Part shown: positions 660-34,686 of the stretch, in pieces
How positions within the stretch are numbered: the first letter of the stretch is position 1
Layout: each line of letters opens with the position of its first letter
Assembly (NCBI RefSeq): GCF_006345805.1
Contig: NC_043005.1
Coordinates: 75,578,001-75,642,000, forward strand
Origin: Octopus sinensis
Taxonomy: Eukaryota
Length of the DNA stretch: 64,000 bases
Direction: 5' to 3'
Made by a program: the position numbers and the translations under genes
The notes under the pieces: model-generated
The model's database searches: none
What the model was told of the DNA's origin: nothing
Seen by the model: the letters and a program-made list of their open reading frames with translations, nothing else

Positions 660-2930
<2,271 letters not shown>

Positions 2931-3397
2931 TATTTAGGGTGTTCCAGTTTAAGACTTCCCACTCTCTGTTTATTTTCTCCTTCACTTTCTACCTTCTTAT
3001 GAATCAAATTTGTTTTGATATGCTCCGACTATCTTAAATCTTTGTAAACTTTTAAATAGGTTTCATTTCCTTTTGGTCTGACACATTAGCACCACAAATA
3101 TACTAAAGGTTCATTCAACTACGGTTTCAATGAATAAATTAAAGGTGAAAGGTGGATGAGAAGTAGGGAAGAAGAGGAAGCTTGCAGCGAGACTGTGGGA
3201 GTCAGTGCTACAAACTTTTGCTTGATTCAATAACCTATTTTTCTATGCGCTTGACTAAATTATTAATTTTGTACTTCCTTTATACAAACTTTATCTTTTC
3301 CAGTGATTGTCGAGAGGTTAGGACACAAACTCATAGATTCATCTCTGTTATTATTTTCAGCAGTTTAACTGATGTCTACTTTTATACTTGTGTGAAA

Positions 3398-32439: not shown

Positions 32440-32515
32440 GCGAAGGAGTGGCTGTGTGGTAAGTAGCTTGCAAATAATCTAAATTCAACTTTTTACACTT
32501 ATGCATATATATATA

Positions 32516-33124: not shown

Positions 33125-33245
33125 ATGCAGAGCAATGTGAGATGTTTTTTGCTCAAAAACACAAGGCAGCACCTGGTCTAGGAATTGAAACCACAATCTT
33201 GTGATTGCGCATGCTACATCCTAACCACTAGACCATGCATCCTCA
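33125..33245 (-). mobile_element. SINE family C head (degenerate)
   Basis: ttgctcaaaaacacaa...ggaattgaaaccac...ctaaccactag. Confidence 0.6.
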
Positions 33246-33395
33246 TGAGTGTTACATTAGAGAAAAGAGAAACCCATTTTTGGAAATTATGTCGTAGTTC
33301 TAAGAAAGTGCTGTAGATAGAATAATTTATACATTATTTACATTATTTACATTATTTACATTTGACGGATATTTGTCCTCATCTTGTTTGTTGTT

Positions 33396-33441
33396 AGCAC
33401 AATGTTTCGGCTGATATACCCTCCAGCTTTCATCAGGTGTC
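33396..33441 (-). ncRNA. Minimal type I hammerhead-ribozyme-like motif (left arm)
   Basis: gacac CTGATGA aa gctg gagggtatat cagc c GAAA ca TT gtgct. Confidence 0.6.
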
Positions 33442-33738
33442 TTGGGGAAATTTGAACCTGGGTTCTCATTCCTAAGGTATTTTTCAATGTTATTATTCTT
33501 CTTCTTATTATTATTATTATCATTATTACTAATACTATTATTATTATTATTATTATTCAGGTCACTGCCTGGAATTGAACTCAGAATCTTGGGGTTAGTA
33601 TGCTCTTAACCACTATGCCATATGCCCAAGATTCCGAGTTTGATTCCAGTCAGTGACCTGAATAATAATAATAATAATAATAACAACAACATCAAAAAAT
33701 ACCTTAGGAATGAGAACCCAGGTTCAAAATTTCCCCAA

Positions 33739-33781
33739 GACACCCGATGAAAGCTGGAGGGTATATCAGCCGAAACGTGTT
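33739..33781 (+). ncRNA. Minimal type I hammerhead-ribozyme-like motif (right arm, U4C variant)
   Basis: gacac CCGATGA aa gctg gagggtatat cagc c GAAA cgtgtt. Confidence 0.5.
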
Positions 33782-34686
33782 AACAACTAACAAGATGAGG
33801 ACAAATATCTGTCAAATGTAAATAATGTACATAATTCCTTATCTCTTAAATGTAGAACAGGATAATTTATGACTAAAAGTTTTTTTTTAGATAATTTAGT
33901 CAAATTAAGACTGATAGTGTCCATGGCCTTTGCAAGCCTTCCCAGATTAATGAAATGGAAATGGATGATGTTTGCCCTAAATGCTTGATCTAAATGTTAT
34001 AGGTAAACTATCAGATGGAAGGAACTGAATGATCTCAAGACTGTCAATAGAATGATTCTCATCTTAGGGCTCTCAGTAACCAGGTAGTAATTAGACATAG
34101 TAGCAGTAGTGTAAAATCTCTATAAATAATAATAGCTGATATAATTCTTGGTTTCTTCAGTCATGTTTTACACTGTATATAGAGAAAGGAAGAGGAAAAA
34201 AGAGAGAGAGAGTTGATGGAAAAAGTGCAGGATATATGCCCATGGTAGGCTTGGTGGTGGGCAATGAGTAAAGACTGGTCACTGCCACACATATATTCTA
34301 TTAGAGATAAAGAATCATAGAGGCAGGAGGAGGAGGAGTTATTGACAGTAATAAATATATTTTTGTTTTGAAAATTAGTATTTGTTTCATCATTTTGAAT
34401 AAAGCACCCAAGCATTTGGTAAAAGTCAAATTATAATCAGTGTATGTATGTCATATTTCCTGATATTAACCATGGTGGTAAAAAGCACACTTTCAAAGTC
34501 AGCTGTCGTATAACAAACAACAGACAACAACCCAGTGTATACATATTTTACTGACACATTGTGCAGAACTTCAACTCTTCCAATAGAAATTTTTTTCCTG
34601 CTTTTATAGAAGTTTAATTCTTCCAGCAGAACCTGTTTGGAAAGGGGAAAAATCGTTAAACTTTACCCGCTTCTTTGTACTCTGTC

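Follow-up and report, generated by a model that had tools for sequence, protein, structure and literature searches.

The window analysed here, a stretch of 64,000 nucleotides of Octopus sinensis DNA (contig NC_043005.1, positions 75,578,001 to 75,642,000), contains a palindrome in which two copies of one repeat unit lie head to head between the two copies of a 9-bp direct repeat. The features are listed below in window coordinates, under names that anticipate the assignment of the unit to the pseudo-LTR (pLTR) of a Penelope-like element (PLE). The left copy of the target-site duplication and the left-arm boxes were called from the sequence, all A and B boxes against the usual consensus, and the start codons by homology to P0001, the closest homologue, which also supports the frame of the left arm.

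33322..33330, + strand: 9-bp target-site duplication, left copy
33331..33627, − strand: left arm, a pLTR copy from +1 of the tRNA-like head to the 'short' 3' site, with no tail
33557..33627, − strand: tRNA-derived head of the left arm, with a 5-nt deletion relative to the family majority
33610..33620, − strand: A box, left arm
33572..33580, − strand: B box, left arm
33491..33556, − strand: (AAT)n microsatellite inside the pLTR, left arm
33467..33469, − strand: predicted start codon of the PLE ORF, left arm
33396..33441, − strand: minimal type I hammerhead, left arm, damaged, within the ORF N-terminus
33625..33627, no strand: head-to-head junction, a 3-nt overlap of the arms
33625..33861, + strand: right arm, a 5'-truncated pLTR copy lacking the A box and extending to the 'long' 3' site
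33638..33646, + strand: B box, right arm, with one change
33662..33688, + strand: (AAT)n/(AAC)n tract, right arm
33710..33712, + strand: predicted start codon of the PLE ORF, right arm
33739..33781, + strand: hammerhead, right arm, with a changed core and, at the predicted cut site, the 3-nt in-frame deletion that is common in the family
33831..33858, + strand: PLE 'tail', 28 nt that code for part of the ORF N-terminus and separate the two preferred 3' ends
33862..33870, + strand: 9-bp target-site duplication, right copy

The original prediction had described a hammerhead-carrying element with a tRNA-type promoter, arranged as a palindrome with a truncated, inverted right arm, and all parts of that description are present in the places it gave. 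Identity between the arms is 91% across 178 nt of body and 93% across 58 nt of head; the right-arm head is cut back to its 3' half, and the 28-nt tail of that arm had gone unnamed. The left arm holds three copies of a 9-nt in-frame repeat, and its ORF frame is shifted by the loss of 1 nt just 3' of the predicted start codon. On balance, the locus is probably a single insertion of two 5'-truncated, head-to-head pLTR copies of an autonomous Penelope/Poseidon-type retrotransposon whose pLTR head likely acts as a Pol III promoter for the whole element, a judgement that applies to both parts together. No joint across the insertion, such as an empty-site allele would give, is among those listed in four contig sets. 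Other tRNA-type SINE heads flank the locus, at 33165-33250 (− strand) and at about 32444-32470 (+ strand), and another lies upstream in the locus L055; the one at 33165-33250 aligns loosely with the head of this pLTR.

The repeat unit and its protein-coding element

The element is multi-copy, as the original prediction requires. Over the 2.72-Gb source genome, the intact 46-nt hammerhead has 761 exact matches and a 31-nt stretch of the body 3,224, against 0 for the reversed control of the former and 0 for the control of the latter. Since 20 of 181 spanning arms match the 31-nt stretch exactly, we arrive at a rough estimate of ~29,000 arms, anchored on well-kept copies. Near-duplicate loci were removed from the counts only when identical; L177/L178 and L188/L189/L191/L193 are near-identical loci with the same flanks, either by segmental duplication or by redundant assembly. 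The head and the hammerhead body, expected by the original prediction to occur together, are joined in 26 of 30 head-anchored copies, and 8 of the same 30 are joined to the end of an ORF. The family is decayed, with 3-4% non-CpG divergence, and no intact full-length copy of it was found.

The connection with a coding element comes from the DNA on either side of the unit. Two loci had a common stretch upstream of the head, and a search with that stretch gave 2,119 first-look candidates, in which the DNA upstream of the head encodes endonuclease-like and reverse transcriptase (RT) sequence. The ORF stop lies 31 nt upstream of the head, and ORF end and head are in line in 17 of 30 RT-anchored loci, as judged by eye. 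On the other side, the body continues directly into the ORF N-terminus in most of the 30 loci anchored there, the hammerhead falling within the first ~25 codons. Because the unit adjoins an ORF stop upstream and runs into the N-terminus of the next ORF, the tRNA-like head, the (AAT)n tract, the hammerhead and the optional tail are almost certainly, by their sequence context, the pLTR of an autonomous Penelope/Poseidon-type element rather than a stand-alone SINE.

The protein encoded is consistent with this assignment. Read with P0001 as guide (847 aa; 52% identical over the query), the family majority gives 832 codons without a stop, an RT and endonuclease ORF of ~830 codons that is 57% identical to P0001. 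The N-terminus alone, through the hammerhead, matches P0001 with 48% identity over 100 aa (E 5e-26), and neither the variable 9-nt repeat nor the common 3-nt deletion breaks the frame. Pfam gives RVT_1 at E 1e-6 and 29.1 bits, just under the cut-off of 29.6, and makes no GIY-YIG call, so that this domain was read by eye from the translation; 35 homologues have both PF00078 and PF26215. The arrangement is therefore that of PLEs, with a single ORF in which a telomerase-like RT, just below the Pfam cut-off, is followed by a C-terminal GIY-YIG domain recognised by eye, and with pLTRs that arise from partial tandems, direct or inverted, and overlap the ORF start. In the translations, again by eye, the linker between RT and endonuclease has no Zn-finger motif, in contrast with the control PLE family described below. 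Such a motif is given for Neptune and Nematis in the accessible part of PMC8557442, and its absence here points to the Penelope/Poseidon clade, a placement made by linker motif and not by an RT tree. Scans with P0001 alone and a scan of viral contigs found nothing.

The original prediction had the element using Penelope machinery, and the unit is indeed tied to it, as the pLTR of a PLE with RT and GIY-YIG. What mostly fails is the reading as a short non-autonomous SINE: the whole unit, head included, belongs to an autonomous element. It has the tRNA-related head with A and B boxes of a SINE. A SINE, however, would be a non-autonomous unit with only its 3' end in common with its partner; this unit is shared in full, and its 3' end is N-terminal coding sequence of the ORF, not an A-rich or simple-repeat tail. 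Three other descriptions were discarded. A non-LTR retrozyme, made of ORF-less, head-to-tail, hammerhead-bounded repeats that give circular RNA, does not match a unit that belongs to a coding element and whose pairs are mostly head to head. A 38-nt intron over the tail and a start codon inside the hammerhead core do not agree with P0001, in which the unspliced frame is conserved, and were both dropped; no joint for such an intron is among the RNA-seq joints listed.

Two observations stand apart from these questions. The (AAT)n tract built into the pLTR (window 33491-33556 and 33662-33688) appears to seed microsatellites genome-wide, and 21 of 94 arms end or break there. Beside a truncated copy in L116 (oriented 2615-3367) lies an open frame of 251 codons that has no relation to the PLE and is possibly the start of another retroelement.

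Insertion signature and hammerhead

The 3' ends of 376 arms fall mainly at two places ~27 nt apart, 205 at the short site and 148 at the long site. Among 129 head-to-head pairs, 106 combine one long and one short 3' end, where ~43% would be expected from the class frequencies, and 63 have flank duplications of at least 8 nt, against 2.3% (at most 6.3%) after shuffling partners; the target duplications of the pairs measure 7-13 bp. The window locus is such a mixed pair, and the 9-bp repeat around it, at 33322-33330 and 33862-33870, which had been put forward as a candidate target-site duplication, agrees with this enrichment. All of this is textbook for PLEs: the head-to-head pairing, the duplicated target sites, a tail (30-40 bp in the Penelope/Poseidon clade) confined to one arm, and two adjacent sites for the 3' end; the accessible parts of PMC3846280 and PMC8557442 describe the inverted pLTR, 9-10 bp duplications and one-sided tail for PLEs.

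How the two arms come together can be approached through their differences. As in Poseidon_Ac, the PLE of the green anole, the protein would nick both target strands; reverse transcription would then start from two internal priming sites within the ORF N-terminus, one per strand, and the two cDNAs would be joined at microhomologies to give the palindrome, hammerhead cleavage being unnecessary for insertion. For the palindrome alone, the alternative is self-priming, in which fold-back copying of one strand makes the pair. This has been proposed for head-to-head pLTRs (PMC3846280, in the part available), a small palindrome lies at the junction hot spot, and two variants are common to both arms above chance: 131T is in both arms of 6 pairs and in a single arm of 6, with 0.7 expected, and 60A in both arms of 4 and a single arm of 8. 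Yet in at least half of the informative pairs the two arms carry different family-level variants, most pairs use different 3' sites, and Poseidon_Ac extends both strands in vitro (PMC11167929). Since discordance between arms is so frequent, two-strand priming from two templates or two pLTRs fits better than simple fold-back, which we regard as unlikely.

The claim of a hammerhead holds for the family and not for the window. In the family majority, the minimal type I motif is restored, with its core, helices I and II, palindromic helix III and a cleavable triplet, and with pair probabilities of 0.88-1.0 in helices I and II; the full set of features is kept in 33 of 171 scorable unanchored arms. 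Neither window arm is intact: the left hammerhead is changed in the palindrome and helix I, the right one has a changed core and has lost 3 nt at the cut site, and both are changed at the first pair of helix II. A hammerhead within the pLTR is itself usual for PLEs, and related PLEs have the same architecture with a changed helix II. Copies starting at the cut site were also considered, and their ends do not pile up there (7 ends in 9 nt, against about 0.5 per nt elsewhere).

The 3-nt deletion at the cut site is the commonest deletion of the body, seen in 24 of 222 arms where no other exceeds 5, and has 286 exact matches. In the window it is the in-frame loss at 33773-33778, at the predicted cut site, and it mostly differs between the arms of one insertion; across 80 scorable pairs, 22 are discordant, 9 have it in both arms and 49 in neither. 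It might be the footprint of an RT jump, by a 2-nt microhomology, across RNA cleaved in vivo, which we offer as a lead only and think doubtful; an old polymorphism among master elements fits as well.

The tRNA-derived head and transcription of the element

The original prediction of a tRNA-derived head is well supported. The majority head is identical at 50 of 74 positions to a tRNA-Arg(TCT) gene of the source genome (z 7.3), in a comparison set of 34 distinct tRNAs from only 9 anticodon classes that therefore does not fix the parent isotype, and both its A and B boxes are perfect. Rfam, where the original prediction had proposed to look for a hammerhead match, returned neither hammerhead nor tRNA for the window and L089, only hairpin-driven miRNA matches below the cut-off, and ARAGORN called no tRNA at any of 21 loci; the head is thus derived from a tRNA but is not one.

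The 5' ends of the copies suggest what this head does. Among 94 arms anchored at their 3' end (90 loci), the 5' end lies in the body in 21 and in the microsatellite in another 21; 15 begin within the head and 27 at −8..+9, and 10 extend beyond that in the 5' direction. Put differently, 37 arms reach head +9 and 27 of these stop within the 17-nt boundary just upstream of the A box, a per-base rate 15-fold that inside the head; two 5' ends scored at −17, which look like chance matches to the inverted partner, are left out of the 27. Genome counts of 22-nt matches, going 3' across the boundary, are 519, 759, 3,032 and 4,467, so that the count rises 4-fold from 759 to 3,032 and about 1.5-fold at the steps before and after. 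An ORF and an inverted partner are both missing from 11 of 30 head-anchored copies, and the ORF-bearing copies L190 and L201 also begin at the boundary. The pile-up, the step in counts and the partner-less copies together indicate that the template RNA had a defined 5' end, ~16 nt before the A box. Such a spacing between start and A box is the usual geometry of Pol III. A 12-bp palindrome spanning −7..+5 overlaps the pile-up and could itself favour junctions.

Pol III would thus begin ~16 nt before the A box and, for want of a terminator, would transcribe the ORF and continue into the next tandem pLTR. On the sense strand of the family majority there are 0 runs of four T's (T4) in 2,496 coding nt and none in the pLTR. 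Under synonymous shuffling the mean is 2.8 and the probability of none 0.038; under a second null they are 4.3 and 0.003, so that the depletion is modest and concerns one family. T4 is a plausible terminator in the source genome because T runs are in excess downstream of its tRNA genes: T4 or longer occurs within 30 nt downstream of 29 of 38 (exactly four in 15) and upstream of 12 of 38. A second PLE family of the same genome, with the same T content, lacks an A/B box and has 8-9 T4 runs at most of the 20 loci compared, although it belongs to another clade and has twice the Phe count. This control family (L402-L421, e.g. G000:C6:12731307-12733070) is young, with intact ORFs of ~781 codons, a Cys-rich, Neptune-like linker between RT and endonuclease, and a 3' region in which CCAAT- and CRE-like motifs recur.

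Related PLEs temper the argument. Among 60 loci from metagenomes (those of 79 fetched with at least 1,200 matched coding nt), T4 is not generally depleted (341 seen, 335 expected), and 5 of the 60 have no T4 in the matched coding part. These include L452 and L504, one family with 22% T whose ORF is T4-free and which has no A/B box, which makes a T4-free ORF on its own a weak result. Every one of 20 complete related units, those in which both the ORF end and the hammerhead could be seen, contains T4, although many of them repeat the same families, and none of 32 related PLEs has A/B boxes behind the ORF. L452, L504, L466 and L461 are PLEs of other animals with few or no T4 in the ORF and no A/B boxes found; L461 holds two stop-free tandem copies.

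Under a rival reading, the absence of T4 is chance. The T4-free relative with no boxes shows how such an ORF can occur, several 5' ends lie exactly at +1 where the palindrome could produce them, and the promoters tested or predicted for PLEs in print, to the extent that PMC2377424 and PMC3846280 were accessible, are both Pol II-like. Three RNA-seq runs of a related organism gave no Pol III-type RNA: both strands are equal, there are no shared ends, discrete ends at the hammerhead cut site, which the original prediction had proposed to look for, are absent, and the ORF has a depth near 1% of that of the pLTR. This pattern is as expected for passenger transcription, and such libraries would miss short or uncapped RNA. 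Against this rival stand the A and B boxes, perfect in the majority though the cloverleaf no longer folds, which argues against RNase P; a pile-up that extends to −8 and occurs in copies with no inverted partner; the lack of any T4-free complete unit among the relatives; and a short pLTR with no CCAAT/CRE array of the control family's kind, as judged by eye. We find the rival doubtful, though of appreciable weight. The pLTR head is likely a Pol III promoter, and transcription of the whole element by Pol III is slightly favoured on these sequence features. Pol III normally makes only short non-coding RNAs, and its transcripts are uncapped, a problem for an ORF whose route of translation the proposal leaves unexplained.

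Such a transcript might also account for the short copies. Priming in the first pLTR of the RNA would run off at its 5' end after ~280 nt and yield SINE-sized copies, and priming in the downstream tandem copy would yield copies containing the ORF. Alternatively, short copies with intact A and B boxes could themselves be transcribed by Pol III and re-mobilised in trans, as a PLE-dependent SINE lineage born from the pLTR. The promoter lies inside the copied unit, which makes re-mobilisation possible, and PLE pLTRs can mobilise other sequence in trans (PMC3846280, accessible part). About three quarters of the heads are not linked to an ORF (22 of 30; 3,032 against 759 matches), but run-off from the element's own RNA yields the same sizes. 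At positions 72 and 145, ORF-linked arms and the remaining arms have different variant frequencies (P 0.001 and 0.006, with no correction for the 25 sites); these variants are, however, not private to short copies, the other 23 of 25 show no difference from ORF-linked arms, and the 3-nt deletion is also in 8 of 41 scorable ORF-linked arms. The RNA of Poseidon_Ac must extend ~55 nt past the priming sites, the template needing the first 172 nt of the ORF with priming at 111-118 (PMC11167929), and the short copies lack that sequence; if the same rule holds here, copies that end at the priming sites cannot be re-copied. Given this template requirement and the variants common to ORF-linked arms, we prefer to see the short copies as run-off cDNAs from the 5' end of the RNA and think a SINE lineage quite improbable. 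The complete proposal, in which a captured tRNA-derived promoter drives end-to-end Pol III transcription of a 2.8-kb unit purged of T4 and the SINE-sized copies are run-off products, stands in our view at even chances.

If correct, it would touch on a general distinction. Pol III promoters mark non-autonomous SINEs. Autonomous eukaryotic retrotransposons are taken to be Pol II transcripts, or Pol I co-transcripts in the case of R2 (general knowledge; PMC2377424, as far as accessible). A coding PLE under a tRNA-type promoter would break this split and require cap-independent translation; it would also offer a compact system for testing the role of PLE hammerheads and a one-step route from a PLE to a SINE-like repeat. 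In the literature searched, with subscription journals, Repbase and Dfam outside its scope, we found no PLE with a tRNA-derived or Pol III promoter; the family may already be deposited in Repbase or Dfam or be listed in the supplements of PMC8557442 or PMC4209133. What sets this family apart is the probable tRNA-type promoter and the T4-free unit, the insertion anatomy itself being that of an ordinary PLE. The pair statistics, with one long and one short end and arms that often carry different variants, bear on how PLEs build inverted repeats, which the cited PLE papers leave open. The SINE fraction is given as 11.6% in O. vulgaris (PMC13282606, part available). Part of the annotated octopus 'SINE' fraction may be solo PLE ends.

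Comparison with known systems

Octopus tRNA-derived SINEs were reportedly described by Ohshima and Okada in 1994, under the family names OK, OR1 and OR2. The likeness lies in the tRNA-derived heads, and the head of this PLE may derive from such a SINE.

The closest parallel among coding elements is Poseidon_Ac (PAc), which also has a single RT and GIY-YIG ORF, a pLTR, a hammerhead that overlaps the start of the ORF, a pair of neighbouring 3' ends separated by the tail, and use of both target strands (PMC11167929). It differs in its start codon, which lies inside the hammerhead core and here is predicted 11 codons upstream of it, and the accessible text of PMC11167929 reports no tRNA-derived promoter. 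According to the available part of PMC3846280, Pen2a of Adineta vaga and its relatives likewise have a pLTR that includes the first ORF codons, inverted 5' pLTRs, solo pLTRs, duplications of 9-10 bp and a tail of ~31 bp on one end, but their promoter is a predicted TATA/Inr (Pol II) one, their copies are few and head-to-head pLTRs are ascribed to self-priming. In Penelope of Drosophila virilis, the pLTR promoter drives the downstream tandem copy, as proposed here, and the tail measures 34-37 bp; that promoter is an internal TATA-less Inr/DPE type like that of LINEs, and the element has an intron and no A/B boxes (PMC2377424, part accessible).

The ribozyme agrees with the minimal PLE hammerheads in its extra nucleotide between 9 and 10.1, its G10.1-C11.1 pair and its palindromic 15.2-16.2, and, as there, most motifs are solo, from truncated PLEs, with some close pairs on opposite strands (PMC4209133, in part). 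By the same source, helix II has 7-8 bp in Schistosoma, against 5 bp in the motif predicted here. The Sm-alpha and Sj-alpha SINE-like repeats of Schistosoma also place a type I hammerhead after a Pol III-type promoter (PMC6765202, accessible part). They are, however, non-coding and tandem, whereas here promoter and ribozyme lie within a coding PLE, and the octopus copies, unlike theirs, keep head and 3' end together across an uncut hammerhead.
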